Shown: positions 3,704 through 30,790, counted from the stretch's first letter. The stretch: DNA of 34,022 bases from Candidatus Deferrimicrobiaceae bacterium (GCA_036555205.1 DATBLU010000203.1:1-34022), one strand, 5' to 3'. Program-made: numbers and translations. The notes: generated from the letters alone by a model not told the origin.

Positions 3704-4813
3704 TTACGGAAGCAGCTCCAGGAATCTGTCGAACAGGCGCGGCTCGAACTCCTTCCCCCTGCCCTCTTTCATTATGGAGATCGTCGTTTCCCTGTCCAGG
3801 CTTTTCCTGTAGGGACGATAGGTGCGAAGCGCGTCGTAGACGTCGGCGATCTGGGTCATGTACGAAGCGGGCTGCATGGCCCCTTCGAACCGGACGGCCG
3901 GATATCCCGACCGGTCGTATTTGACGTGGTGCTCGAAGGCGACGATCATCGGCAGGTCGGAGCCGCAATCCAGTTTCCTGAGTATTTTCGCGCCGGTTGT
4001 GGGGTGCTCAGCCATCCTTTCGAACTCGCCGGCATCCAGCCTGCCCGGCTTGTTGAGTATTTCCTGCGGGATCGTCTCCTTCCCGACGTCGTGCAGCAGG
4101 GCGGCCATGCCGAGCTCCTGTACCTGGGGCTCGGAAAAACCGAGGTGGATCGCCTGCGCCACGACGATTACGCAGACGTTCAGGGAATGCGTCACCGTGT
4201 AGTCGTCGTGCGCCTGCAGGCGCATCAGGCGGTCGACGAGCATCCCCTCCTGGCGAAGCCCCTTCATCACCGCCGCAACCAGGTCGCGCCCTTCGGAGAC
4301 GCGCCCTCCCGCCCCTTCCCCCGCGAGCGACGTCAGAAGGCTCTTCAATACTTCGGCGGCTCCCTGAAGGACGTGGGACCTCATCACAGGCGAAAGTCCT
4401 GAAGGGATATTCCCCCCTTCCGCGATCTCATGGATCCGGCCGCAGGTTATATGCTCCCATCGCATTTCCGCGGCCCCCTCCTTGCCCCCTCCAACGTAAT
4501 ATACGAACCGCTTCAATTCACCGAAAGTGATCCCCTCGCCGAACGAGACCTTCTCTATCCCCCTTTCCTGCATCCTGCGGATCAGTTTGATCAGGGTGGG
4601 GGAAAGTCCCAGGAAGGGGAACTCGTCAACGATGGCGTGATCGCCCATGAAGCCCATGTGCAGGGTCTTGAGCCTTTCCGTTTCATCCTTTATGCGCTGA
4701 TGGAGGCGCGTCAAAAGTTCCTGGACGCGCTGATGGGTATCCGGATAGACGGACACCGCCTGGACGGCCAGTGCAAGGTCGGATACCACGCCGAAGAGAT
4801 CCTGCTTCTTCAT
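3704..4813 (-). CDS. HD-GYP domain c-di-GMP phosphodiesterase-type protein (no receiver domain)
   Basis: Track ORF 3704-5143 is trimmed to the ATG at 4813 (MKKQDLFG...), with GGAGGG upstream. This ATG overlaps the upstream stop as ATGA. Motifs: HSLNV, HDVGK and HHVKYDRSGYP. 369 aa. Confidence 0.85.
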   Translation of the reverse strand: MKKQDLFGVVSDLALAVQAVSVYPDTHQRVQELLTRLHQRIKDETERLKTLHMGFMGDHAIVDEFPFLGLSPTLIKLIRRMQERGIEKVSFGEGITFGELKRFVYYVGGGKEGAAEMRWEHITCGRIHEIAEGGNIPSGLSPVMRSHVLQGAAEVLKSLLTSLAGEGAGGRVSEGRDLVAAVMKGLRQEGMLVDRLMRLQAHDDYTVTHSLNVCVIVVAQAIHLGFSEPQVQELGMAALLHDVGKETIPQEILNKPGRLDAGEFERMAEHPTTGAKILRKLDCGSDLPMIVAFEHHVKYDRSGYPAVRFEGAMQPASYMTQIADVYDALRTYRPYRKSLDRETTISIMKEGRGKEFEPRLFDRFLELLP

Positions 4814-12097: not shown

Positions 12098-14548
12098 TCA
12101 GTATCTGTGGCTTTTCCCGACCCGGGAAAAGAGCCATCCGGCGGCGAGGTAAAGGAGCCCGCCGGCCGCGACGGTACCTCTAAATCCGATCCACATCGCA
12201 CCGGCCGATGCCAGCGAGGCCCCCGCCACCGAGAAAAAGCCATTTATTCCCCATGCATACGGGATCGCGGGCGCGGCCGATCCGGCCAGGCGCGAGAGTC
12301 CCGCGGGGAACGGCATCCCCATGAGAAACGCCGCCGGCCCCAGTGAAACGATGAATATCGCCGTCCTCGCGGTTTCCCCCAGCGGCAGGAGCACCCCTGC
12401 CGACAGGGAGAGGAACAGGAACCCGGCAAGCGCAAGAAACGCGATCCCGGGAAAGACGCGTCCCTTCATGGTCTTTTCCGACCCCCATCTCCCGGAAATC
12501 GCGCTGCCGAGCCCGGAGAAAAATGCGAATCCGCCGATGGCGGCGGTGGCGGCCCGGATAGCGTCGCCCAGAAGGAGAATCCCGATTTTCAGGAACGTCA
12601 GCTCGATCAGCATGTACGCCAGGCCCAGCGCCGAAAAATAGACCGCAAGGCTTGCCCCGCCCGCCTTGTCAGGCAGGCGCACGGCCGCAAGCGGAGCCAG
12701 CAGGCAGACCGAGGCCAGCGCAAGAGAAACGGCGAGGGAAGCAAGGAGGAAGACAACACCCCATTCGACGAAAGGGACCCACTGGTTTCCAAGCAGCCTG
12801 CGGAACTCGGGCAGCGAGCCCAGCCGCAGGAAGCGGTGGAAATACGGGGAATCGTCGACCACTGGCAATAGATCGAACAGTTCTGCGCCGGGCCCGCCGG
12901 ACCGGCCGGCGATCACGCCCGCAACGGCCGTTCGAAGCCCCTTTTCCGCCGCCCCCTCCCCGGCTTCCGGTCCGTCCCCGGGGGGCCACACTATCGAAAA
13001 CCCCGTCTCCCCGCAGAAACGTTCCAGACGCCTCATCTCCTCTGCGGCAAAGGGGAGCCGCCTCGCGATAATGGCGAACGACCCCCAGCCCCGGACCATG
13101 ACCACCTTGGCCGATGCCGGGGCGCGGTCGTCCCTTTCCAGCTCCAGGCGCAGCGTAGCGAGGATCTTGACGCTTTCCCTGGGCGGAGCCTTGAGCCACC
13201 CGGAGAATGCGATAACGCCGCTTTCCGTAAGACGGGACATCGCCGCCCGAATCCCCTCCCGCGTCAGGAGGTACGTCTCGCCGGTCGCATGAATCCCGAG
13301 AGATGAATACGTCGCCGACGATATCTCCGACACTTCGATCAGGTCGAACCTGCCCCCCTCGCGCGCCAGGAAATTCCGCGCGCCCTCCGTCCGGATCTCC
13401 GCCGGCATTTCCGCAGGCAATCCCGCGGAGAACCGGAACAGATCCGACCGCACCAGCGCCGCCAGTTCCGCGGCGGGCTCCACGACGGTGACCGACGAGG
13501 CGCCGTTCCTGGCGGCCGTAAGGATGCCCTCCGTCCCCCTCAGTCCGAATTGAAGCACCGCGGGACGGTCGACCATCCGGTACGCCGCCACCAGGGGAAA
13601 TCCGTCGAGGTAGGCGGGAGGGCTCTCTCCTCCGTCTTGCGGGACGACTCCGCGGGCTTCGCCGTCGAAGAAGAGCGCCGCCTGCGGGGGAATTTCTCCC
13701 GCGAACCGGAAGCTCAGTCCCGGTGCGACATGTATGCCGCTTGCGAAGAGCGCACGGTAATCCCCGGAGGGGCCGAAGCGATATGCGATCGTCTCCGCGC
13801 CCGGAAGCCGCGCGGCGACGGCCAGGTCCTTGTACGGGGACAGCGCCAGTTCGGCCGGCGGCAGGAAGAGCAGCAGCGACGAGGCCGCAAGGACCGCCAG
13901 GCGCGACCTGTACATCCGTCCCCCGAACAACCCCGCCGCAAAAAGGGACGCCGCAAGGGCGATCGCAAGCGGCACGCGCATGAGCGATTCCGTTCCCAGG
14001 AATGAAAAGGCCGGAAGGGCGAGGACGGCTCCGGCGGCGGACCCGGCAAACGCGGCCGCGTAGACCGGACCCGGCTCTTCGAACCGGAAGGCGAACGGGA
14101 CCGCTATTGCCCCTCCGGCGAGGAAAAAAGGAACCGCAAGCAGAAGGAAGAACCATCCGAAACCGATCCAGGCGGAGGGCTCCCACATAAGGAGGAACGG
14201 ATCGAAGGAGATCACCTGCGAGGCGCGGAAAGCGAGGTCGAACGACGGGGCGGAAAGGAGCGCCAGCCATGCGAAGAAAACCGTCGGGGCATTTTCGATT
14301 CTCCGGCGGAGAAGGTGCAGCGCGAGCCCCGCGGCGCCGAATCCCAGCATGGCCTGCGAAACGATAAGCGGCACGAAGTGCGGCCAGAAACGGAAAGACA
14401 GGAGCCTTATGAGGAATATCTCGTCGGCCAGGGCGGCCGCCGACAGGAGGAAGACGGCCGCAAGGACCGCCTCGCGCCCGGGCCGGTCAGTGGCCGAGGA
14501 GACGGACGAAGGCGACCGGGAGGACGTTTCGCTGGGAGACCGAGCCAT
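12098..14548 (-). CDS. Polytopic membrane protein with a central spermidine-synthase-like (SAM-fold) domain
   Basis: 816 aa. It has about 7 hydrophobic helices at the N-terminus and about 6-7 at the C-terminus. The central soluble region resembles aminopropyltransferase order but has degenerate motifs: VLQFGLRGTEGILTAARNGASSVTVVEPAAEL...GRFDLIEVSE...LLTREGIRAAMSRLTESGVI. Confidence 0.6.
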   Translation of the reverse strand: MARSPSETSSRSPSSVSSATDRPGREAVLAAVFLLSAAALADEIFLIRLLSFRFWPHFVPLIVSQAMLGFGAAGLALHLLRRRIENAPTVFFAWLALLSAPSFDLAFRASQVISFDPFLLMWEPSAWIGFGWFFLLLAVPFFLAGGAIAVPFAFRFEEPGPVYAAAFAGSAAGAVLALPAFSFLGTESLMRVPLAIALAASLFAAGLFGGRMYRSRLAVLAASSLLLFLPPAELALSPYKDLAVAARLPGAETIAYRFGPSGDYRALFASGIHVAPGLSFRFAGEIPPQAALFFDGEARGVVPQDGGESPPAYLDGFPLVAAYRMVDRPAVLQFGLRGTEGILTAARNGASSVTVVEPAAELAALVRSDLFRFSAGLPAEMPAEIRTEGARNFLAREGGRFDLIEVSEISSATYSSLGIHATGETYLLTREGIRAAMSRLTESGVIAFSGWLKAPPRESVKILATLRLELERDDRAPASAKVVMVRGWGSFAIIARRLPFAAEEMRRLERFCGETGFSIVWPPGDGPEAGEGAAEKGLRTAVAGVIAGRSGGPGAELFDLLPVVDDSPYFHRFLRLGSLPEFRRLLGNQWVPFVEWGVVFLLASLAVSLALASVCLLAPLAAVRLPDKAGGASLAVYFSALGLAYMLIELTFLKIGILLLGDAIRAATAAIGGFAFFSGLGSAISGRWGSEKTMKGRVFPGIAFLALAGFLFLSLSAGVLLPLGETARTAIFIVSLGPAAFLMGMPFPAGLSRLAGSAAPAIPYAWGINGFFSVAGASLASAGAMWIGFRGTVAAGGLLYLAAGWLFSRVGKSHRY

Positions 14549-17737: not shown

Positions 17738-18211
17738 TCACTCGTAGATCCCCGCGCCGACGTACGCGTTCTTGCCCGGCACCCGGTACACGTAGGTGAC
17801 CTTCTTGCGCGCCTTCGGATCCCCGGGGTTGGTCCACATGTAGTCGACCCAACCTTCACCCTTCCCCTTGGCCACATCCGTGAATTCCTTGAACAGGAGC
17901 TTCCCGGGATCCCCCTTGTCCTTCATTCCGAGAACGTTTGTCCCGACAAGGGCGGGGCTCATCGGATGCGCCAGCATCTTTCCGTCGAAGTCCGTCATGA
18001 ACACATACGTGTCCTTCCAGACGAATTTTCCCTGCTTGTTGTTGATCTCCTTGATCGCTTCCGCCTCGCCCTTCTCGGTGTACAACTTGGCCGCTTCCTT
18101 GGTCTTTGCGATGCACTCTTCCTTCGTGGCTTTCTCCGCCGCCACGACATTCGAGGTCAGAAAAAGGCCGAACAGCAACAACAGGGTCAATACCGCAGCT
18201 TTCTTCATCAT
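17738..18211 (-). CDS. Secreted single-Cache (sCache_2-like) domain protein
   Basis: 157 aa. Signal peptide MMKKAAVLTLLLLFGLFLTSNVVAA. Cache-like core: YVFMTDFDGKMLAHP...GWVDYMWTNPG...KVTYVYRVPGKNAYVGAGIY. GGAGGGGAG RBS. Confidence 0.7.
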   Translation of the reverse strand: MMKKAAVLTLLLLFGLFLTSNVVAAEKATKEECIAKTKEAAKLYTEKGEAEAIKEINNKQGKFVWKDTYVFMTDFDGKMLAHPMSPALVGTNVLGMKDKGDPGKLLFKEFTDVAKGKGEGWVDYMWTNPGDPKARKKVTYVYRVPGKNAYVGAGIYE

Positions 18212-18338: not shown

Positions 18339-19112
18339 TTAACCGGATGGCTTCTCCCTCTCATGAAGTTTCATGACGCGGAAAGCTTCGGCGTATTCGG
18401 GCGCCCCGGGGACTCCGGGATCGGCGCATCCGGCGCCATTCCCTTGGACCCTGGCCCTCTCCGCTTCGTTCCTTGCCCATTCGAGAATTCTGGCGGCGGG
18501 ATCCCACCCTTCCAGCTGGCTGGCATGCGCCTTCAGGGCTTCTATCTTCCTGTCGATCGTGCCGGAAATGTCGATCCAGGTGTTGGGCGACGGAGTCGAC
18601 CCTATGTACACGGCCCGGACCTTGTGCGGCAGCCCCTCCTCGGGCCACAACAGCTCCATCTCGGCGGCGGGGAACACGGCCTCGAGCGCGGCCGCGGCCG
18701 CTGCGCGATGGTCAGGGTGGTTGATGTAGCTGTCGTTGAAGAACCACGCTTGCGGATCTCCGCATACCACCACCTCCGGACGGAACCGGCGGATCTCGCG
18801 CACCAGCTCGCGGCGCAATTCCAGCGTGGGCAGCAGGGCGCAGTCGTCGTGGCGCAGGAACACCACTTCCTTGACCCCCAGGATCCCGGCCGCGGCCCTC
18901 TCCTCCTCCTCGCGCGCAATCGCAAGCGTTTCGCGCGTAAATGTGCGGTCGTGCGTGCCCGCGTTGCCGCTCGTCAGCACGACGAGCGCGATCTCGCACC
19001 CGGCCTTCGCCCATCCCGCCATGGTTCCGGCGACCGTAAATTCGGCGTCGTCCGGGTGGGCGAAAATCGCCATCGCGGACCCGGGGACGTAGCCGGCGTC
19101 GTATCTGGGCAT
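18339..19112 (-). CDS. PIG-L/LmbE family N-acetylglucosaminyl deacetylase
   Basis: 257 aa. Hallmark AHPDDAEF, then LTSGNAG and YINHPDHRA. GGAGGGGAG RBS. Confidence 0.85.
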   Translation of the reverse strand: MPRYDAGYVPGSAMAIFAHPDDAEFTVAGTMAGWAKAGCEIALVVLTSGNAGTHDRTFTRETLAIAREEEERAAAGILGVKEVVFLRHDDCALLPTLELRRELVREIRRFRPEVVVCGDPQAWFFNDSYINHPDHRAAAAAALEAVFPAAEMELLWPEEGLPHKVRAVYIGSTPSPNTWIDISGTIDRKIEALKAHASQLEGWDPAARILEWARNEAERARVQGNGAGCADPGVPGAPEYAEAFRVMKLHEREKPSG

Positions 19113-19263
19113 CGGATCTCCCCTCCGGCTTTCAGATGCCGGAACGGGCTGCCCGGATTTAATCCCGTCCGGTACCAGTTTTACAGGAAAAGCTGCGGCC
19201 GCGACCGGCGCCTGAAGGAGCTCTGGGGGGGCGGGAGCCGGATCGTGACCGCGGTCCGTTCGG

Positions 19264-19279
19264 CCCGATAACCCGATAA
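19264..19279. repeat. Exact tandem 8-mer CCCGATAA x2; a third CCGATAA lies at 19307-19313
   Basis: Read directly: cccgataacccgataa. It sits in the AT-rich part of the divergent PIG-L / sensor-kinase intergenic region, 113-128 nt upstream of the kinase ATG. Confidence 0.6.
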
Positions 19280-19391
19280 AATAAATAAAGTTATATCGCT
19301 GGACTTCCGATAATTACCTCAAATGGGATCCATGAAGCGAGGCCCGGGCAATCCCATGGCCTGACATTTTTTGCTCTTGCGGAGCTAACAC

Positions 19392-21971
19392 ATGGATATA
19401 AAAGGGGTAATTCTGGCCCCCGTCAAAAAGCTCAAGTCCCGCATAAACGGAAGGCTGGACTCGGAGCACGAGCAATCCCTTATCCGGCTCGCCTTGACTC
19501 TTATATGTTTCCTGTATTTCCTCTCGGCTTTCATCGCCAACCGGCATGAACAGGGCGGAGTCGGCTGGGCCTTCTACTCGGCCGGCTGTTACATAATATT
19601 TTCCCTGGTGGTTTTCGCGGCCATCGTCATCCGGCCGGGGATATCGCCGGTCCGCAGGATCGTCGGGATGCTGGGGGACATCGGCATAACCTCCTACTGC
19701 CTTTACGTGGGAGGCGCCAATACCGCCCCCATTTACATCCTGTATCTTTGGGTGACTGTCGGCAACGGCTTCCGGTACGGCAACAAGTACCTGTTCGCGA
19801 GCACTTTGGCCAGCGCCGCCGGATTCACGTTCGTGATCTGGTCGACCAGCTACTGGCGCGACCAGCTTCCCCTTTCGATCGGACTTTTCGTGGGGCTGAT
19901 CATTCTGCCGCTGTACATCTCGACGCTGATCCGAAAGCTGACGGACGCGATGAAGAAGCTCAAGGACGCGACGGCTCGCGCGGAAGACGCGAACCACGCG
20001 AAGAGCCAGTTCCTGGCCAACATGTCCCATGAGCTTCGCACCCCGTTGAACGGAATTATGGGAATGGCGGAGCTGCTTCAAGACACGCGCCTCTCCGACG
20101 AGCAGAAGAACTTCACCGACACGATCTACGATTCGACCCGCACCATGCTTTCCCTGGTGAACGACGTCCTGGACATCTCCAGGATCGAAGCCGGGAAGAT
20201 CGTGATAGAGAAAACGGATTTCGATCTGCACGACCTGCTGAAAGAAACCGCGTCCATGCTGCATCACTCCGCCAACGCAAAGGGACTGCAGCTTTCCACG
20301 ATCATACCCCCCAACGTTCCGTTCCTTTTGCAGGGCGACCCGCTGCACATACGCCAGGTCGTCCTCAACCTTCTATCGAACGCGGTCAAGTTCACGGAAT
20401 CGGGAGAGGTCACGCTGCGCGTCCAGCGCGTCCTCGAGACGCCCGACAAGGTTTCGCTCAAGTTCGAGGTGTCCGACACCGGCATCGGGATGACCGAGGA
20501 GCAAAGGGAGAAGATCTTCGAGCGGTTCGCGCAGGCCGACGGCTCCATCACTCGCCGTTACGGCGGAACCGGGCTCGGGACCACCATCTCCAAGCAGTTG
20601 ATCGAACTTATGGGCGGGGATATCGGCGTCGAGAGCGCCGCCGGCGTCGGCAGCACCTTCTGGTTCACGCTGTCTTTCGACAAGCAGGCCGCGGCCGATG
20701 CGCCCCTCGCCCCGGACAAGGCGACCGATTGCAGGTTCCTCGTCGTATCTTCGGATCCGGAGACGATGGACGCCTTGTGCGGGCATATGAAATCCTGGAA
20801 CATAGAGACCGATGCGATCCCCCGCGCGGCAATGGCGTTCTCGAAGCTGGTCTCGGCGTTCGACCAGGGCAATCCGTATCACGCGGTCATAGTCGTAGAG
20901 CAAAACCTCGACATGGGGCTGTCCGAATTCGCCACTGTAGTGAAAACCGTCAAGAAGATCGCCAAATCCCGCCTGATCGTCGTTTGCCGCCCCTTCGCAG
21001 TTCCCAGCCTGGACGACCTCGCCCGGAAGGGGTATTGCGTCGCCCTCGAGAGTCCTCTCGACAAGACGATGCTCTTCAACGCCATACACTTCGTCAGGCC
21101 GGACACCCCCGACAAGGAAGACGTGGCGTTTCTCGCCAACCGCTACAGGCAGAAGAAGTCCGGCGCGGACAGGCTGCGCCTCCTCGTGGCCGAAGACAAC
21201 GCGGTCAACCAGAAAGTCATCAGCCTCATATTGGAAAAGGCCGGGCACAGCGTACGCCTCGTCGAAAACGGGGAGCTTGCCCTGGACGCGCTGCAGAACG
21301 AGAAATTCGACCTGGCCCTCCTGGATCTCAACATGCCCGTAATGGGAGGAATCGAAGCCGCCAAAATGTACCAATTCATGTCGCTGAACCGCCCGCGGGT
21401 CCCCCTGGTTGCGCTTACGGCCGATGCGACGCCCGAGACCCGGAAAAAATGCGAAGAAGCGAAATTCAACGCGTACGTCACGAAGCCCTTCGAGTCGAAA
21501 AACCTGCTCGAGGTCATTTACAGGCTGACTCCAAAGGCGGCTGACAGGCGCGAAAGCGCGCATTTCCATGCCCTTTCCGAGGGCCAGGAGAAAAAACCGG
21601 CAGGTCTTGAAGAACCGCTCGATTTCTCCGTCATACGGGATCTTGTAAGCCTCGGGGCCGACGGGAATTTCATCCGCAACATGACCCGGCTGTTCATGGA
21701 AGGGACGGAAGAGAAGATCCGGCAGATGAAGGATGCCTTGTCGACGCGTAACTCGGAGGAATTCAGGAGGCTCAACCACGCCCTGAAGGGTTCGGCGGGC
21801 CAGATCGGGGCGATGCCATTATCGTCCCTGTGCGGCGAATATGCGCTCGCCGGCCACGATGAGTTCGTCCGTTCGGGGAAGGAGATGGTCGACAGGTTGA
21901 ACGCGGAGTTTCAAAAAGTCGGCGAGGCCCTAAGCGGCCAGGCCGAGGATCTCAAAAAAACCAATCCTTGA
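19392..21971 (+). CDS. Hybrid sensor histidine kinase, RpfC-like: multi-pass TM sensor, HisKA, HATPase, degenerate receiver-like segment, REC, HPt
   Basis: 859 aa, with GGAG 7 nt upstream of the ATG. About 5 TM helices contain [15 protein letters not shown]-box [10 protein letters not shown]. HATPase DTGIGM...[23 protein letters not shown]...[11 protein letters not shown]...TKPF. HPt [13 protein letters not shown]. Confidence 0.88.
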
Positions 21972-21974
21972 ATT

Positions 21975-22880
21975 CTAGGTACGGATTCCTTCGTCGGCGA
22001 TGAGCCGGGGGCCGCCGCTCTCCTTGGCGACCTGCGCGCGCACAAGCCTTTCCATGATTCTCAGATCGGAATCGTCCAGGCTGAGGGCTGTGTCCACCCA
22101 GATATCGGCGGTTCTCTCCAGTTCTTCCTTGGCGACGCGGAACACATCCTGTCGGACCTTGCTGATCCCCTGCCTTGCTTTCAGCCTCCTGGAATGGTTT
22201 TTTATGAACTCGTATACCGCCTTCTCCCCGCCGCCGTCCTCCGCAAGGATGTCCACCACGCCTTTTTCATGCAACTCTTCGGCCGTGTACACGTTTCCGC
22301 TGGTCATTATTTCCTCTACCTGCTTCATTCCCACCCTTCTGGCAAGGAAGTGATAAGCCCCCATGCCGGGAAACAGGTTGAACAGGATTTCCGGCAGGCC
22401 GAACCTCGCGCGCTTCTCGGCGATCATTATCGAACAGCACAAGGCCGCCTCGAATCCGCCTCCGAGGGCATCGCCCTGGACCAGGGATATCGTGGTCATC
22501 GGGAGATTGTAGTTGGCCGACTGGATGTAGACGTTGTCGATGCAAAGCTGCGCGTATCTCCTGAGCCCTTCGCGGTCCCGCTCCGATATCATTTTCTTGA
22601 AGAGAAATATATCTCCCCCGTAGCTGAATATGGCGGGATGTTTCGATGCGAGAACGGTGTAAAGGATGGGAAGGGAACCCGACTTCGAAAGGTGACCCCT
22701 GCCGTAATCCTCGATATTGTCGTAGCAGCGCTTCAGGCTCTCCAGCAACGGTTCGTTGAAGCAGGACCTCCCCTCGGGATCGAGGAATGTCCAAAGGACT
22801 TTGTGGGAGTGATCGAATCTTAATTTGAGCTGCTTCGCCGACTCGAACACCGGGGGGAATTGCTGGACGGGAACCTGCAT
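21975..22880 (-). CDS. rpfF: Crotonase-fold DSF-family signal synthase homolog (RpfF-like enoyl-CoA hydratase/thioesterase)
   Basis: 301 aa, with GGAG 5 nt upstream of the ATG. Motifs: GDALGGGFE(144)AAL and GLPE(164)ILFNLFPGM(173)GAYHF. C-terminal ADIW(261)VDTA...MERLVRAQ. As I recall it, this matches the Xanthomonas RpfF layout at a constant +3 offset. Confidence 0.75.
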   Translation of the reverse strand: MQVPVQQFPPVFESAKQLKLRFDHSHKVLWTFLDPEGRSCFNEPLLESLKRCYDNIEDYGRGHLSKSGSLPILYTVLASKHPAIFSYGGDIFLFKKMISERDREGLRRYAQLCIDNVYIQSANYNLPMTTISLVQGDALGGGFEAALCCSIMIAEKRARFGLPEILFNLFPGMGAYHFLARRVGMKQVEEIMTSGNVYTAEELHEKGVVDILAEDGGGEKAVYEFIKNHSRRLKARQGISKVRQDVFRVAKEELERTADIWVDTALSLDDSDLRIMERLVRAQVAKESGGPRLIADEGIRT

Positions 22881-23040
22881 GGAATCTCCTTTTATCGGAT
22901 TTCCCGCGTCAATATCGACATGACGATAAATTTACCCATATTGTGAAAATTAAACACCCGATGCCGCGCTCATCCCTCCTCGCCAAAATGGAGAAATATT
23001 CGCATTCGGTTACACTCATATGCGGCCGAATAAAATTCTG

Positions 23041-23055
23041 CTGAATCTAATTCAG
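23041..23055. repeat. Perfect palindrome CTGAAT-CTA-ATTCAG in the AT-rich island upstream of the rpfF-like gene
   Basis: Read directly. It lies about 160-175 nt upstream of the ATG at 22880 and is a candidate operator. The binding factor is unknown. Confidence 0.5.
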
Positions 23056-23177
23056 TACCGTGACCCCCCGGTCGTGCATAAAATAATATAACCGGATCGT
23101 AAAATTGCAAATCTTATTTTTTGCAGGGAGTTCGAAGCGTCGATTCAAAGGAAATACTTATATACATTTTCACTCGA

Positions 23178-24227
23178 TCATCCGCGCCGCCGGTGGTCGT
23201 CGATCAGGGGAAAAGTTTTCCCATAAACGATCTGCCGGACCCCATCGAGGAAATCGAGCGGGAACCCCAGCTCGATCCTGCTCGCTTCGTCCAGTCGCTT
23301 CATATGCTCCGGCGTCAGGCTGAACTCGAGCACGCCCAGGTTGTCCCTTAGCTGGGAAACCTTCGTCGCGCCGACTATCGGGATCATCACGCCGCGCTCG
23401 CGCTGCCTCACCCAGGACATGGCCACCTGCGAGGCGCTGTGGCCCGTTTCCCCGGCTACCGCCGCGACTTCTTGCGCGATCCGGAAGTTCCGTTCCGTCA
23501 GGAATGCGTCCCCCCACTGTGCGGCGGTCGAAAAACGCGTCTCTTTCGGACGGTCCTTGCCGGCCTTGTATTTTCCGGTAAGGACGCCGCCCCCGAGCGT
23601 CCCCCACGGCGTCACGGCGAGGTCCAGCGCCTCCGCCATCGGCAACAGGTCCCGCTCCGGGGTGCGCTCGATGAGGCTGTAAGGTATCTGCAGCCCGGCG
23701 AATGGCGTCCACCCCTTCAGGTCCGCGAGAGTGTTCGCCCGCGCAACGGCCCACGCAGGAGTGTCGGAGATGCCGGCATAAAGGATTTTCCCCGAGCGCA
23801 CCGCGTCGTCCAGGGCGCGCATGAGCTCGTCCGCGGGGGTCATGGGGTCCCATGCGTGGACCCAGTAGAGGTCGATGTAATCGGTGCGAAGCCGCGCCAG
23901 GCTGGCTTCCAGGGACTGCGCCAGGTTCTTGCGATGGTTCCCGCCGGCGTTGGGATCGTCCGGGCTCATGCTCAGGGTGTACTTCGTGGCGATAACGAAT
24001 CGCTCGCGCTCCGAAGCCACGAACTCCCCGACGAACCTTTCGCTCGTGCCGTTCGTGTAGTAGTTGGCGGTGTCGATGAAGTTCCCGCCCGCTTCGGCAT
24101 ATGCTTCGAATATCCTGCGGCTCTCCTCCTTGGACGCGCCCCACCCCCACTCTTCCCCGAAGGTCATCGCTCCAAGGCAGATTTCGGACACCCTGAGGCC
24201 GCTTCTTCCCAGCAGCTTGTACCGCAT
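23178..24227 (-). CDS. Aldo/keto reductase family oxidoreductase
   Basis: Track ORF 23178-24269 is trimmed to the ATG at 24227, with GGAGGG upstream. Sequence: MRYKLLGRSGLRVSEICLGAMTFG...FIDTANYY...IATKY...IDLYWVHAWD. 349 aa. Confidence 0.9.
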   Translation of the reverse strand: MRYKLLGRSGLRVSEICLGAMTFGEEWGWGASKEESRRIFEAYAEAGGNFIDTANYYTNGTSERFVGEFVASERERFVIATKYTLSMSPDDPNAGGNHRKNLAQSLEASLARLRTDYIDLYWVHAWDPMTPADELMRALDDAVRSGKILYAGISDTPAWAVARANTLADLKGWTPFAGLQIPYSLIERTPERDLLPMAEALDLAVTPWGTLGGGVLTGKYKAGKDRPKETRFSTAAQWGDAFLTERNFRIAQEVAAVAGETGHSASQVAMSWVRQRERGVMIPIVGATKVSQLRDNLGVLEFSLTPEHMKRLDEASRIELGFPLDFLDGVRQIVYGKTFPLIDDHRRRG

Positions 24228-25679: not shown

Positions 25680-27908
25680 ATGATGAGAAGCGAAAACACA
25701 TTTTCGGGGCGTTCCACGAAGTCCTTCTTCTCGTGGCCTATCCGGCGCCATCTCATGCTGCTCGTTTTCCTGGCGGTCCTTCCTGCGTTGGGGATAATCC
25801 TTTACACGGGTCTTGAAACCCGGCGCAATACCCTCGCGGAGGCGCGGCGGGACCTGTCGCATCTCATGGAACAGCTCGTTTCGGCCCAGGAACACCTCGC
25901 GGACAAGTCGCGTTACATGTTCGAGACGCTTGCGGAGCTGCCCGAGGTCCATAATCTGGATCCTGCCGCCTGCAACCGCCTTTTCGACTCCCTTCTGCGC
26001 CGCATGCCCTATTACGCCAATGTCTTTTCCATGGACACGAAGGGAAACGTCATAGCCTCGGGGGTGCCCTTCAAGGCCATAAACGCTTCGGACCGGAAAT
26101 ATTTCCGCGAGGCGGTCGAGACTCGTGGCTTCTCCGTCGGGGAATACGCCATCAGCAGGACGACGGGTAAATCGTCGCTTCACTTCGCATATCCCGTGTA
26201 CAACAAGGACAGGGATCTGCTGACGGTGATCGGAGCCGCGTTCGACATCCAGCACTTCGAGATGACCTACGCCAGGCAGGGGATGCCGAAGGATTCGGTT
26301 CTCCTTATCACGGACCACGCCGGGGTTGTCCTGCACGACTCGCGACACCCTTCCGGGGGCGGAACCGTCACCGGGGAGGCGAAGATGCTCGAAGCCTTGA
26401 AGAATCCGGGACGCGAAGGGATGTTCAACGCCCGATTATCCGACGGGGTCCAGCGGCTTTTTGCGTATCGAAAGCTTCGCCTGTCCCCTTCCATGCCTCC
26501 CTACCTGCTCGTCGCCGTCGGCATCCCGGAGACCCATATTTTCGGCGGCCCTCGAGATATCCTCACGCGCAACCTCCTGTTTCTCGGCATCGCCACCCTC
26601 CTCGCCGCCGCGGCCGCCTGGATCCTGGGGAACTTCGTCATAGTCGACAGGATCAAGGCATTGGTCGCCGTCTCGCAGCAGTTCGGCAACGGAGACCTGT
26701 CGGCGCGAGCCGGGCTTCATCATTCGGGCGGAGAGCTGGGGGTCCTGGCGAAATCCTTCGACGAGATGGCCGAATCGGTCGAGCGGGACATCTCGGAACG
26801 CAAACTGACGCAAGAAGCGCTCCGCCACTCGGAGGAGAGATATCGCCAGGTCGTGGAGAACGCCAGCGACGCCATCTTCGTGGCAAAGAACGGATTCATC
26901 ACGTTCACGAACCCGCGGCTGACGGAGAAGACGGGGTATTCCCCGGAGGAAATCGCGGCCGTTCCCTTCACGCGGTTCATCCATCCGGAAGACCGGGAGA
27001 TGGTGGCGGACCGCCACAGGAAACGGCTGCAGGGACAAGCGCCCCCATCCAGCTATCCTTTCCGGATCCTCACCAAATCGGGAGAGATGCTGTGGGTGGA
27101 AATCGCCTCGGTTCTCGTCAACTGGGAGGGTGAGCCGGCTACGCTCAATTTCCTGAGGGACATCACCCATCAAAAAAACCTGGAGGGGCAGCTTATCCAC
27201 TCTCAGAAAATGGAAGCCGTAGGCGCCCTGGCCGGGGGGATCGCCCATGACTTCAACAACCTCCTCCAAGCCATATCCGGATTCGCCGCGCTCGTGCTCC
27301 TGGACATGCCGGATGACGACAGGCGCCGCTCCCATCTCCTGAACATCGAGAAGGCGACCGGGCGCGCCTCCGATCTCGTGAGAGGGCTCCTGGCTTTCAG
27401 CCGCCGGGAGGATTCCCCGCAGGTGCCCCTGGATTTGAACGAGGCGGCAGCTTCCGCGGTCGAGCTTTTACGGCGCGCAGTCCCGAAGACGATCCGGGTC
27501 GAGGCGCGCTTCTCGCCCGGCCTTCGGCAGGTCCGGGGCGCCGCCGCCCAGATAGAACACGCGATCATGAATCTGGGGACCAACGCCCGCGACGCCATGC
27601 CCCAAGGGGGAGTTATATCCGTCGAAACGGACCGGTGTCAGATTTCGGCGGACGACCCCCGCCAGCCCGACGACGCCGTCCCCGGCAGTTACGTCGTCCT
27701 GCGGGTCAAGGACACGGGCGTGGGAATGGATGCCGGGACGATGAACAGGATGTTCGATCCCTTTTTCACGACGAAGGAGGTCGGGGCGGGGTCCGGCCTG
27801 GGCCTTTCCGCCGTCTACGGGATCGTAAAGAGCCACAACGGATGGATCCGCTGCGAGAGCGAACCCGGGAAGGGCGCCTGTTTCGAGATCTTATTCCCCG
27901 CCCTCTAG
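25680..27908 (+). CDS. Sensor histidine kinase (TM, Cache-like periplasmic domain, TM, HAMP, PAS, HisKA, HATPase)
   Basis: 742 aa. Two TM segments flank a domain of about 270 aa. HAMP FGNGDLSARA. PAS SEERYRQVVENASDAIF. H-box IAHDFNNLLQAI. HATPase NARDAM...DTGVGMD...GSGLGLS. Confidence 0.9.
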   Translation: MMRSENTFSGRSTKSFFSWPIRRHLMLLVFLAVLPALGIILYTGLETRRNTLAEARRDLSHLMEQLVSAQEHLADKSRYMFETLAELPEVHNLDPAACNRLFDSLLRRMPYYANVFSMDTKGNVIASGVPFKAINASDRKYFREAVETRGFSVGEYAISRTTGKSSLHFAYPVYNKDRDLLTVIGAAFDIQHFEMTYARQGMPKDSVLLITDHAGVVLHDSRHPSGGGTVTGEAKMLEALKNPGREGMFNARLSDGVQRLFAYRKLRLSPSMPPYLLVAVGIPETHIFGGPRDILTRNLLFLGIATLLAAAAAWILGNFVIVDRIKALVAVSQQFGNGDLSARAGLHHSGGELGVLAKSFDEMAESVERDISERKLTQEALRHSEERYRQVVENASDAIFVAKNGFITFTNPRLTEKTGYSPEEIAAVPFTRFIHPEDREMVADRHRKRLQGQAPPSSYPFRILTKSGEMLWVEIASVLVNWEGEPATLNFLRDITHQKNLEGQLIHSQKMEAVGALAGGIAHDFNNLLQAISGFAALVLLDMPDDDRRRSHLLNIEKATGRASDLVRGLLAFSRREDSPQVPLDLNEAAASAVELLRRAVPKTIRVEARFSPGLRQVRGAAAQIEHAIMNLGTNARDAMPQGGVISVETDRCQISADDPRQPDDAVPGSYVVLRVKDTGVGMDAGTMNRMFDPFFTTKEVGAGSGLGLSAVYGIVKSHNGWIRCESEPGKGACFEILFPAL

Positions 27909-30790
27909 TCCAGGACATCCCTTATTTTTTTCAGGAGGCCGCTCGGCGAAACGGGCTTGGAAACGAAAGCGACGCCCTTTTGCAGGATCCCGTCCTTGGT
28001 GAACACGTCCTCGGCGTACCCGCTGATGAACAGGGCCTTCACTTCCGGGCGCAGTTTCTTCATTTCTTCGTATGCTTCCTTCCCGTTCTTCCTCGGCATG
28101 ATCCCGTCAAGGATGACCAGGTGGATGCGATCTGCATTCTCCGCGTATTTCCTCACGGCATCCTCGCCGTCCACCGCTTCGATTACTTCATAACCGGATT
28201 GCCCGAGGACGGAAACGGCGAGTTTCAGAAGATCTGCGTCATCCTCCGCCACAAGGATCGTTTCGGTCCCGCCGCCGGCTGATGCCGGCTCCCCCCCACT
28301 GCTTTCATCCGATCCGGCCTGTTCTCTCGCCAGTGGAAGGTAGATCCTGAATATGGTTCCGCGGCCGGGCTCGCTGTAAACGTTTATGAATCCTTCATGC
28401 TTTTTGACTATACCGTAGACCATCGCGAGTCCGAGTCCCGTCCCCTTCCCCCGCTCCTTGGTCGTGAAGAACGGTTCGAATATGTGCTTCCTCGTCTTCT
28501 CGTCCATGCCGCAGCCAGTATCGGATACGGAGAGAAGCGCGTACTCCCCCGGATTTCCGTAGCCGTGGGCCTCGACGAACGCGTCGTCGACCTTGGCGCG
28601 CCTGGTCTCTATCGCCAGCTTTCCGCCGCCGGCCATGGCGTCGCGCGCGTTGGTAACCAGGTTCATGAGCACCTGCTCCATCTGCCCCGCGTCGGCCAAA
28701 ACGGATAACTCCGCCGGGGCGCAAGCGGTCGTCATCTCGATGTCCTCGCGGATAAGCCTCAGCATGATTTTTTCGAATCGCTTTATCAAACCGTTCAGAT
28801 CCAGAAGGACGAGATTGACCGGCTGTTTCCTGCTGAAGGCAAGCAGGCTCTGGGTCAAAACCGTCGCCCTTTGCGAGGACTCCAGCACCTGTTCGATGTA
28901 GTGCCGCGCCGGATCGTCGTCCTTCATCTTCATCAGTGCAAGGTGTGAAAATCCTATGACTGCCGACAGGATATTGTTGAAATCATGCGCGACGCCCCCC
29001 GCAAGCGTCCCCACGGCCTCAAGCTTCTGGATATGCCGGAGCTGTTCCTCGAGTTTTTCCTTCTCCCTTTCCGCCTTGCTCTGCTCCGTGATGTCGATTC
29101 CGAATGAAACGGTGCCGATCACCCGTCCTTCCTCGGATATAACGTTATTCTGCCAGGTGATCAGCCTCTCCTCCCCCGATTTCGCCAGAACCGGGTTTTC
29201 AAAGGTTTCAGGCGTCCCTCCCCCGAGGAGACGATGGAATTCTTCCCACGCGGAAGGATATCTGTCTTTCGGCACGACCGCTTCGAACCAGTTCCTGCCT
29301 GCAATCTCTTTCCTGTCGTACCCCGTGATCCTCTCCGCCGTCCTGTTGAACACGGCGACGGCTCCGGAAGTGTCCAGGCAGACGATCATCGCGTTGGCCG
29401 TTTCGATCAGGTTTTCCACGTATTCCTTCGCGTGCAGGAGATCCGTTTCGATACGGGCGCGCTCGGCGATCTCGCTTTCCAGCTCCCTGTTCGCTTCGCT
29501 CAACTGCGACGTGCGCGCCTTGACCGCGTCGTCCAGCTCCTCGTGCCAGCGCTGAACGCGCTCCATCATAGAATTAAAGGACCTCGCGAGGGCGCCGACT
29601 TCATCGCCGCTGACGAAATCGGCTCGCGCGCCCAGGTCTCCCTCCTCGATCCTTTTCGCGATTTTGCCGAGCCTCTCGATAGGCTGCGAAAGCCGCCCGG
29701 AGACCAGGTAGATGAGTCCCAGCATCACTAAAAGCCCGGTCATGGATACAGCCGTCGAATGGATGACGGCTTGCCGGACCGGCTCGTAAATCTCGTCCCT
29801 GTCGCTCTTGACGATCATCCCGATTCCGAAATCAGATGTGATCCGGGCATGCCGGACGACCGCGAGTACGGGGACTCCCCGGTAGTCTTCCGCGAACACC
29901 GTCCCGTCGATCCCCCAAGCGGCCAGTTCGGCCGGCTTGGTCGTCAGCCTATAATCCAATGGATTCGGCCGCTTCCCGTCCCGTAGGGGGTATTTCAACG
30001 GGCCGAGGATTCTCCTGTCCGCATTGACCAGGACGACCTCGCCGGATTTTCCGAGGCCCTCTCCCGTATGGAACATGCTTCTGAAAAAATCCTCATGGTT
30101 CACCTTGAAGATCATGAATCCCGGGATTTTCCCGTCACCGCCCGGAAACAGGCCCGCTTCCCTCACCGGATGGATGAAGTAAATATGTGTCCTGTCGCTG
30201 CCCGGGTTCTTCGCGAAAAATATCTTCTCCTCGCTCCCGGAAATTATCTTCGTCATCAGATCGCCGGGAAACTTCGTGCCCACATCTTTTTCATCCGTGG
30301 ATATCACGACCGTGCCGCTCTTCGCATCAGCTATCTGGATCGTTTCGTATTCACTGTAAACATCCAGGATGAGCCTGTTCCTGCGGCTTAATTCCCGATA
30401 GCTCTCGTTATTCTGGAGGTTGCGCAATAATTCCTTTCCCCCCGGTCCCGCGCGGCCGTTCCGCCTTATCGCGCGAAAGACCTCCGCCAGTTTGGCCCTG
30501 AATATATTGCTGTTCACTATTATCTTTACGTTGTTCCTTCGCTCGTCGAACCAGTGGATTATCTCGGACTTCTTGAGATCGGCGTAGGTGCTGAAGTTCC
30601 GCAAAACGCTCGCGCGATGTATCTCTATTTCGCCTTTGAAGCCGAAAACGGGGATGCCGAAGAGAATGACGAGCCTTACGACGAGAAAAAGCAAGGTAAG
30701 ACCGAAACCGAAATAAACGAGCATCTTTGCCCTGAACCCAAACCGTAAACGCTTCGCTGCGTTCCAGGCTCCCGGTTGCAAGGGCATCAC
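27905..30790 (-). CDS. Hybrid sensor histidine kinase (TM, Cache-like, TM, HAMP, PAS, HisKA, HATPase, REC)
   Basis: 961 aa. H-box VAHDFNNILSAV. HATPase NARDAM...DTGCGMD...GTGLGLA. C-terminal REC ILVAEDDADL...VILDGIMPRKNG...SKP. The start is GTG at 30790 or ATG at 30787, either one overlapping the upstream stop. Confidence 0.9.
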   Translation of the reverse strand: MMPLQPGAWNAAKRLRFGFRAKMLVYFGFGLTLLFLVVRLVILFGIPVFGFKGEIEIHRASVLRNFSTYADLKKSEIIHWFDERRNNVKIIVNSNIFRAKLAEVFRAIRRNGRAGPGGKELLRNLQNNESYRELSRRNRLILDVYSEYETIQIADAKSGTVVISTDEKDVGTKFPGDLMTKIISGSEEKIFFAKNPGSDRTHIYFIHPVREAGLFPGGDGKIPGFMIFKVNHEDFFRSMFHTGEGLGKSGEVVLVNADRRILGPLKYPLRDGKRPNPLDYRLTTKPAELAAWGIDGTVFAEDYRGVPVLAVVRHARITSDFGIGMIVKSDRDEIYEPVRQAVIHSTAVSMTGLLVMLGLIYLVSGRLSQPIERLGKIAKRIEEGDLGARADFVSGDEVGALARSFNSMMERVQRWHEELDDAVKARTSQLSEANRELESEIAERARIETDLLHAKEYVENLIETANAMIVCLDTSGAVAVFNRTAERITGYDRKEIAGRNWFEAVVPKDRYPSAWEEFHRLLGGGTPETFENPVLAKSGEERLITWQNNVISEEGRVIGTVSFGIDITEQSKAEREKEKLEEQLRHIQKLEAVGTLAGGVAHDFNNILSAVIGFSHLALMKMKDDDPARHYIEQVLESSQRATVLTQSLLAFSRKQPVNLVLLDLNGLIKRFEKIMLRLIREDIEMTTACAPAELSVLADAGQMEQVLMNLVTNARDAMAGGGKLAIETRRAKVDDAFVEAHGYGNPGEYALLSVSDTGCGMDEKTRKHIFEPFFTTKERGKGTGLGLAMVYGIVKKHEGFINVYSEPGRGTIFRIYLPLAREQAGSDESSGGEPASAGGGTETILVAEDDADLLKLAVSVLGQSGYEVIEAVDGEDAVRKYAENADRIHLVILDGIMPRKNGKEAYEEMKKLRPEVKALFISGYAEDVFTKDGILQKGVAFVSKPVSPSGLLKKIRDVLD

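Follow-up and report, generated by a model that had tools for sequence, protein, structure and literature searches.

Signalling through the family of diffusible signal factors (DSF) has been elucidated almost exclusively in pathogens of plants and humans. A convergent layout of the synthase gene rpfF and the receptor kinase gene rpfC has been described (PMC4504480), and in Xanthomonas the receiver (REC) domain of RpfC holds RpfF sequestered and inactive (PMC9864630). Clusters of rpf genes are also known outside the xanthomonads, namely in Leptospirillum, Thiobacillus, Methylobacillus and Methylophaga (PMC4504480), and RpfF, RpfC and RpfG have been reported widely in metagenomic surveys and metagenome-assembled genomes (MAGs) (PMC12781772). 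For catalytically dead receivers in histidine kinases, ShkA offers a precedent: its pseudo-receiver binds cyclic di-GMP (c-di-GMP) on the alpha4-beta5-alpha5 face (PMC6969517). Here, a contig of 34,022 nucleotides from a Candidatus Deferrimicrobiaceae bacterium (GCA_036555205.1, DATBLU010000203.1:1-34022; in the following, the window) was analyzed, on which the genes of a 301-aa crotonase and of a hybrid histidine kinase lie tail to tail. With a probability of roughly 85%, judged from their homologs, these two genes constitute a quorum-sensing core of the DSF family and of RpfF/RpfC type. By alignment, the convergently linked pair combines an RpfF-family enzyme with an intact active site and an RpfC-family receptor with intact sensing and relay residues. 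While an rpfF/rpfC pair as such is not new, the receptor belongs to a long form with a pseudo-receiver, which is an undescribed but common variant. This locus and its relatives show the complete synthase-receptor core, ligand-sensing residues included, to be widespread among uncultured anaerobic lineages of soil and sediment.

The host MAG, of an uncultured bacterium from sediment or soil, is assigned to the phylum Candidatus Deferrimicrobiota in the NCBI taxonomy, and identical proteins are deposited as HEY7586211-HEY7586215. Both open reading frames (ORFs) proposed in a first-pass annotation of the window could be recovered at the same positions and lengths (kinase 859 aa, crotonase 301 aa). 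Its impression that the neighbouring genes look deltaproteobacterium-like was reasonable; an older record of a near-identical contig reads 'Deltaproteobacteria bacterium'. The novelty of the pair had been overstated: these exact proteins are already labelled 'DSF synthase' and 'two-component system sensor histidine kinase RpfC' by the JGI, and rpf clusters in unrelated bacteria and MAGs had been published (PMC4504480, PMC12781772). The name that the 301-aa protein bears at NCBI, 'crotonase/enoyl-CoA hydratase family protein', says less than the sequence allows one to infer, which is a modest practical point for annotation.

The probable synthase and receptor kinase

The crotonase was searched against all PDB sequences with phmmer. 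The top matches were 7zq7 (4e-55, 190 bits) and RpfF of Xanthomonas campestris pv. campestris (Xcc), 3m6m (1e-52, 182 bits), and 6dgn/5fus matched at about 1e-43 (150-152 bits), whereas the best ordinary enoyl-CoA hydratase reached about 1e-14 (57.6 bits), leaving a gap of ~125 bits between RpfF-family and ordinary crotonase matches. In the broad NCBIfam model PRK08788 the protein scored 346 bits against a cutoff of 177.

For residue-level comparison, an alignment of 35 sequences was used, containing RpfF from canonical rpf loci, the window protein, 26 relatives, the PDB RpfF 6dgn and PaaF of E. coli. The catalytic, pocket or substrate-coordinating residues of Xcc RpfF are G85, L136, G137, G138, E141, E161, G169, M170, W258 and L276 (PMC9864630). 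All ten are kept in the window synthase at a constant offset of +3. E144 and E164, corresponding to E141 and E161 of Xcc, are invariant in 35/35 sequences, and the pocket and coordinating positions include M173, W261, L139, G140, G141, G88 and L279. PaaF lacks M170 and W258, with Ala at the former position and a gap at the latter. The window synthase is 38-41% identical to Xanthomonadales RpfF encoded beside RpfC, 33% to 6dgn and 25% to PaaF, and a neighbour-joining tree without bootstrap placed its clade inside the RpfF group, with PaaF, the single outgroup, distant. The first-pass annotation had read E144, E164, M173 and W261 correctly from the sequence and had matched them to E141/E161, M170 and W258 of RpfF; the pairing and its offset are exact in the alignment, and the PDB scores and the tree bear out the grouping with RpfF rather than with housekeeping hydratases. 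By homology, the enzyme would dehydrate 3-hydroxyacyl-acyl carrier protein from fatty-acid synthesis and cleave the thioester, and the product would be a diffusible cis-2-unsaturated fatty acid.

In the convergently encoded kinase, the domains HisKA (203-268), HATPase_c (315-429), Response_reg (598-709) and Hpt (764-817) were detected by Pfam, confirming the RpfC domain order that had been noted for this protein together with an extra segment between HATPase and REC. In the alignment, H213 falls on the H-box His of Xanthomonas RpfC, and the REC domain matches that of RpfC (3m6m_D) at 1.3e-22.

Searches of Pfam, NCBIfam and PDB sequences with the first 198 residues (the sensor) alone returned nothing significant, and a word-indexed homolog search with the transmembrane (TM) sensor gave only two matches. 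Instead, the kinase was compared directly with RpfC from canonical rpf loci, i.e., kinases of Xanthomonas, Stenotrophomonas, Lysobacter, Luteimonas and related genera whose genes lie tail to tail with rpfF. By BLASTP, the kinase matched the RpfC proteins adjoining rpfF from aa ~10 to 430-456 in one segment with 42-46% identity (E about 1e-115), and a second segment to Xanthomonadales RpfC spans REC and HPt. RpfH ORFs matched aa 13-187 with about 31% identity.

Five residues of the 22-residue N-terminal sensor peptide of RpfC, Arg15, Asp17, Ser18, Glu19 and Gln22, were found by Cai et al. to be essential for DSF perception, and the exchange S18T is functional (PMC5391125). In an alignment of 25 kinases, among them eight Xanthomonadales RpfC and 16 environmental relatives, the corresponding columns R21, D23, S24, E25 and Q28 are invariant in 25/25 sequences, with S or T at position 18. 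The window kinase and RpfC have the TM motif LWVTxGNGxRYG in common, their hydropathy profiles are collinear, and GNGFRYG, part of the sensor as proposed earlier, sits at aa 124-130. The juxtamembrane autoinhibitory residue A178 is kept as A193 (24/25 sequences). The proposed relationship of the kinase N-terminus to RpfC sensors thus stands, on the 42-46% identity and the five invariant DSF-sensing residues. These conserved residues suggest that the signal would be sensed by the N-terminal peptide and the adjoining 5-TM domain; sensing would release the juxtamembrane autoinhibition and start a phosphorelay H213 -> D645 -> H796, and the final phosphoryl acceptor would be a response regulator encoded outside the window.

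The insert between kinase core and receiver

The extra segment between HATPase and REC proved to be real. It covers aa ~448-568, is present in 16/16 of the aligned environmental relatives and in 0/8 of the Xanthomonadales RpfC, and models as a receiver fold. An AlphaFold2 model of aa 440-585, computed with an alignment of 84 sequences, has a mean predicted local distance difference test score of 83.5 and shows a (beta-alpha)5 order from beta1-alpha1 through beta5-alpha5. The best PDB matches found by Foldseek were DivK, CheY and PhoB, with target-normalised TM-scores of 0.8-0.88 at 13-19% identity. At the catalytic positions, the insert carries S453-S454 in place of the acidic pair, E503 at the acceptor, C532 at the T and E553 at the K position; the acceptor position 503 is Glu in the window kinase and variable in relatives. 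Because these five catalytic positions are not receiver-like, the insert is classified as a pseudo-receiver, a predicted receiver fold without the catalytic residues.

Conservation in the insert peaks at W469, at L506-D507-M508 and above all in the beta5-alpha5 segment D557-K-T-x-L-F-N-A-x-H-F (D557[10 protein letters not shown]). MAFFT pairs alpha5 and the following linker (aa 557-595, 21060-21176; [11 protein letters not shown]...ANRYRQKK) with the linker between the catalytic and ATP-binding (CA) domain and REC in RpfC (NVIAFxxPFxRHRAR), at modest similarity. Because alpha5 plus linker aligns to the canonical CA-REC linker, the sequences suggest that only beta1-beta5 of the receiver fold were gained or lost between the long and the short form. 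The window kinase lacks the short CA-REC linker of canonical RpfC, which marks it as a structural variant and does not speak against homology.

When the insert alone was searched against Pfam, NCBIfam and PDB sequences, nothing significant was found and no PDB chain was matched. A HMMER scan with the insert over 1.84 billion representative proteins retrieved only 205 clusters at E <= 1e-3, most of them proteins of 840-890 aa matched at ~430-590 and with the same architecture as the window kinase. For a survey of orthologous loci, eight neighbourhoods with gene calls and 80 from metagenome contigs were collected, of which 44 hold a synthase and a sensor-bearing kinase; these loci were chosen by similarity to the window synthase and their ORFs were called stop-to-stop, so that all fractions are indicative only. 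Since BLAST with the window insert under-called pseudo-receivers in divergent kinases, spacer length was used instead. The lengths between kinase core and REC fall into two sharply separated classes: 30 loci have spacers of 141-174 aa (151 aa in the window), and 14 have spacers of 10-26 aa. The insert defines a widespread long-form RpfC, found in 30/44 surveyed loci. Within the literature that could be searched, no paper linking RpfC with a pseudo-receiver was found.

Speculatively, the pseudo-receiver would most likely serve as a module for docking or autoinhibition that uses its conserved alpha4-beta5-alpha5 face. The true REC domain could be tethered by it, or it could assume the sequestration of RpfF that REC performs in Xanthomonas; both are speculative. 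Only tentatively, with the odds leaning against it, can the long form be regarded as a distinct class of DSF receptor with a second layer of control exerted by a dead receiver, and as part of a rewired circuit common in soil and sediment bacteria. Such a layer could consist in RpfF sequestration that frees the true REC for the phosphorelay, or in the binding of an intracellular ligand. If the pseudo-receiver controls synthase sequestration or kinase autoinhibition, this would bear on the general question of what bacterial pseudo-receivers do.

Gene arrangement, orthologous loci and output

The features of the locus are listed in Table 1.

Table 1. Positions of the features of the rpfF/rpfC pair (nucleotides of the window; the last row refers to orthologous loci).
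Feature	Position	Strand	Basis
rpfC-like gene, 859-aa long-form hybrid kinase (TM sensor, HisKA, HATPase, pseudo-receiver, REC, HPt)	19392..21971	+	
Sensor peptide R21-L-D23-S24-E25-H-E-Q28, corresponding to Xcc RpfC R15/D17/S18/E19/Q22	19452..19475	+	alignment
Multi-pass TM input domain, ~5 hydrophobic segments including [12 protein letters not shown]; collinear with RpfC/RpfH	19479..19931	+	BLASTP, alignment, hydropathy
Kinase core HisKA and HATPase_c; phospho-His H213 at nt 20028-20030	19998..20678	+	Pfam
Predicted pseudo-receiver insert, aa 448-568, ~120 aa	20733..21095	+	AlphaFold2, Foldseek, conservation
Linker from pseudo-receiver to REC, conserved basic motif L-A-x-R584-Y585-R-Q-K-K	21096..21176	+	alignment; pairs with canonical RpfC CA-REC linker F-L-R-H-R-A-R
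True receiver, full catalytic set E601/D602, D645, T676, K698	21183..21518	+	Pfam REC 1.5e-21
HPt domain, phospho-His H796 in [12 protein letters not shown] motif	21681..21842	+	Pfam Hpt 2.7e-08
Spacer between convergent stop codons, 3 bp, TGA-att-CTA	21972..21974	.	sequence
rpfF-like gene, 301-aa RpfF-family crotonase (candidate DSF-family signal synthase)	21975..22880	-	ORF, PDB phmmer, PRK08788, residues
Intergenic region 5' of rpfF, candidate promoter region only; sigma-70-like matches, e.g. 23111-23083 on the minus strand	22881..23177	-	consensus
FlK thioesterase/TetR/RND loci	L085 14051-18664, L087 11536-18571, L114 8401-9786, L130 8277-9891		

The distance of 3 bp between the two stop codons is as reported in the first-pass annotation. 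A bidirectional terminator was sought at the junction; no terminator-like hairpin was found there, and the only two terminator-like matches lie inside the kinase gene. Synthase and kinase are convergent in 43/44 surveyed loci, with synthases that are only 45-50% identical to that of the window, and the convergent layout is thus canonical (PMC4504480), so that in this respect, too, the novelty of the pair had been overstated. In the orthologous loci the two genes often lie -42 to +36 bp apart, compared with 13 bp in Xanthomonas. Because nearly all loci are convergent, the gaps are near zero and Xanthomonas has a similar arrangement, the tail-to-tail layout is ancestral and not peculiar, in agreement with PMC4504480. 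Six promoter-like matches were found in 19000-23300, against 1.7 expected from shuffles; all six lie within the region 5' of rpfF and are consensus matches only.

A second tail-to-tail pair without intergenic space is present on the contig and consists of two large sensor kinases (25680-30790). A dCache-HAMP-PAS histidine kinase (25680-27908, plus strand) and a dCache-HAMP-PAS-HK-REC hybrid (27905-30790, minus strand) point towards each other, with an overlap of 4 bp at their 3' ends.

Genes adjoining the kinase were counted in those loci with at least 1.5 kb upstream of it (20 long-form, 12 short-form). An RpfG-type REC-HD-GYP gene lies beside the kinase in 5/20 long-form and 5/12 short-form loci, and a REC-GGDEF gene in 2/20 long-form loci, once together with a stand-alone HPt. 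In these two loci, which are of Deferrimicrobiaceae type and whose kinases are 57% identical to that of the window, the REC-GGDEF gene is located divergently upstream of the long-form rpfC (L082 8485-9848, L083 8808-9860); the stand-alone HPt belongs to L082.

Because orthologous loci carry REC-HD-GYP or REC-GGDEF genes adjoining the kinase, the most likely output of the pair is a changed c-di-GMP level, a conclusion drawn from the orthologous loci only. A REC-GGDEF partner, as in L082 and L083, would imply c-di-GMP synthesis, not degradation, as the output. In Deferrimicrobia the relay may feed a REC-GGDEF cyclase, and the signal would then raise c-di-GMP, as opposed to lowering it in Xanthomonas. 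With their variable partners (HD-GYP, GGDEF or none), such loci would offer a natural series in which to study the wiring of one signal to opposite c-di-GMP outputs.

The first-pass annotation had described the window as lacking an rpfB-like ligase and a REC-HD-GYP (RpfG) or RpfR-type partner. RpfB, REC-HD-GYP and GGDEF/EAL proteins are indeed missing, while an HD-GYP protein without REC had been overlooked. This phosphodiesterase-type protein (3704-~4813, minus strand) has a Pfam HD_5 match of 1.6e-19, the motif HHVKYDRSGYP and 33-36% identity to RpfG HD-GYP domains. Its N-terminus of ~200 aa is not a receiver, and MKKQDLF is the likely start because the longer ORF overlaps the upstream HEAT-repeat gene. 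As a candidate for the missing RpfG the protein (3704-4813) was rejected, for want of a REC domain and because of its distance of about 15 kb.

In four long-form loci (Table 1), genes of a FlK/4HBT hotdog thioesterase, a TetR regulator and resistance-nodulation-division (RND) efflux adjoin rpfF; these genes may be involved in handling or export of a fatty-acid signal. Furthermore, one MAG (GCA_040960625.1) carries two paralogous long-form rpfF/rpfC pairs on different contigs (L085 and L086).

In the window, the gene 5' of the kinase is oriented divergently and codes for a PIG-L deacetylase. A small protein of 157 aa is encoded two genes upstream of rpfC (17738-18211, minus strand); its N-terminus resembles a signal peptide, it consists of one Cache (sCache_2/dCache_2) domain and has no output domain, and its position is kept in the related contig L084. 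An 816-aa ORF without a Pfam match (12098-14548, minus strand) lies beside genes of a PCMT-type methyltransferase and a LonC-like protease, in an order that is also kept in L084. No Rfam family was found at the gathering threshold anywhere in the window.

Alternative explanations and comparison with known systems

Several observations weigh against a DSF-family signalling core. By Pfam, the crotonase is assigned only to the generic ECH_1/ECH_2 families, and in the narrow NCBIfam equivalog NF053515 ('RpfF') it scores 221 bits, below the cutoff of 550. This shortfall is discounted as evidence against membership because Luteimonas RpfF (452 bits) and the PDB RpfF 6dgn (182 bits) fall short too; both pass PRK08788, Xanthomonas RpfF passes both models, and the NF053515 cutoff looks like a reflection of lineage, not of function. 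In the kinase, the juxtamembrane L172 corresponds to I180 in the window and its closest relatives and to L in most others, a conservative change. The window holds no RpfB-like ligase, GGDEF, EAL, REC-HD-GYP, RpfR or stand-alone response regulator, no fatty-acid or c-di-GMP genes flank the pair in it, and 13/20 long-form loci have no regulator adjacent to the kinase. The pseudo-receiver is in sequence unlike the one characterised precedent, ShkA Rec1, and its proposed role is speculative.

Part of these points would also suit a metabolic enoyl-CoA hydratase/isomerase that is only incidentally adjacent to a kinase sensing an unrelated membrane or envelope cue: the generic ECH assignment and NCBI name, the score below the RpfF equivalog cutoff and the lack of flanking fatty-acid or c-di-GMP genes. 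This explanation is very improbable and largely refuted by the ~125-bit gap to ordinary crotonases, the conservation of the RpfF-specific M173 and W261, the convergence with an RpfC-type kinase in 43/44 loci and the invariant DSF-sensing residues of that kinase. An unlikely alternative is that the pair does not serve a self-produced quorum signal, the receptor permanently repressing the synthase through sequestration by the pseudo-receiver, so that the system mainly listens to fatty-acid signals of neighbours. In Stenotrophomonas maltophilia strains with RpfC-2/RpfF-2, no DSF is detectable and RpfC-2 permanently represses RpfF-2, but what sets these variants apart is the N-terminal TM region and not a pseudo-receiver (PMC4504480). 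The REC domain of RpfC locks RpfF inactive (PMC9864630), the long form adds a second receiver-fold domain, and the conserved surface of this domain maps to the alpha4-beta5-alpha5 face, through which receivers contact other proteins (PMC6969517); a contact of the pseudo-receiver with RpfF would nevertheless be hypothetical, and the intact catalytic and pocket residues of the synthase, invariant across its clade, argue for selection on activity.

A third explanation concerns the pseudo-receiver itself, which might be a c-di-GMP sensor like that of ShkA, the kinase then integrating an extracellular fatty-acid signal with an intracellular second messenger. The order DHp-CA-pseudoREC-REC matches, the HMMER alignment of the kinase to the 6qrj chain extends over the whole region, the acidic pair after beta1 is replaced as in ShkA Rec1 (PMC6969517), here by Ser-Ser, and orthologous loci tie the system to c-di-GMP enzymes. 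The residues themselves point the other way: the ShkA contacts R324, Y338, I340, R344, S347 and Q351 pair with V537, A551, E553, D557, M560 and N563 in the HMMER alignment, which is weak in this region, the linker is a basic R-Y-R-Q-K-K instead of the acidic DDR tether, and no PDB chain is detectably similar in sequence to the insert alone. Because 0/6 contact residues match, ShkA-like c-di-GMP binding was rejected as unsupported and is considered quite improbable.

RpfF/RpfR of Burkholderia cenocepacia (BCAM0581/BCAM0580) and Cronobacter share with the window an RpfF-family crotonase that matches PRK08788. The window synthase is closer to RpfC-linked RpfF (182-190 vs 150-152 bits; 38-41% vs 33% identity), and it is paired with an RpfC-type kinase as receptor instead of a PAS-GGDEF-EAL protein. 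PA1396 of Pseudomonas aeruginosa also has an RpfC-like input domain and senses DSF and the Burkholderia signal BDSF (PMC4504480), but lacks an HPt domain and a cognate synthase; in the window, an HPt domain is part of the kinase and rpfF lies next to the kinase gene. ShkA of Caulobacter crescentus (PDB 6qrj; DHp-CA-Rec1-Rec2) is alike in carrying a dead receiver, its acidic pair after beta1 replaced, between the ATPase and the true receiver. Unlike the window kinase, ShkA is cytosolic and has no HPt domain, and its c-di-GMP contacts and DDR tether are not kept in the window kinase.

With the RpfF/RpfC(/RpfG) systems of Xcc and other Xanthomonadales, the window has the synthase family, the sensor peptide, the 5-TM input, the HisKA-HATPase-REC-HPt relay and the convergent layout in common. 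It differs from them in the ~120-aa pseudo-receiver, in having no rpfG, rpfH or rpfB nearby and in its host, Candidatus Deferrimicrobiaceae, which is not a gammaproteobacterium; the synthase is 38-41% and the sensor plus kinase core 42-46% identical. Among the long-form pairs of metagenomes and MAGs (Deferrimicrobiaceae, Desulfobacteria, Gemmatimonadota and others), which also bear the JGI names 'RpfC' and 'DSF synthase', the partner varies between REC-HD-GYP (e.g., L088), REC-GGDEF with or without HPt (L082, L083), FlK-TetR-RND and, as in the window, none. With these pairs the window shares an identical architecture including the pseudo-receiver, as well as the convergent layout.

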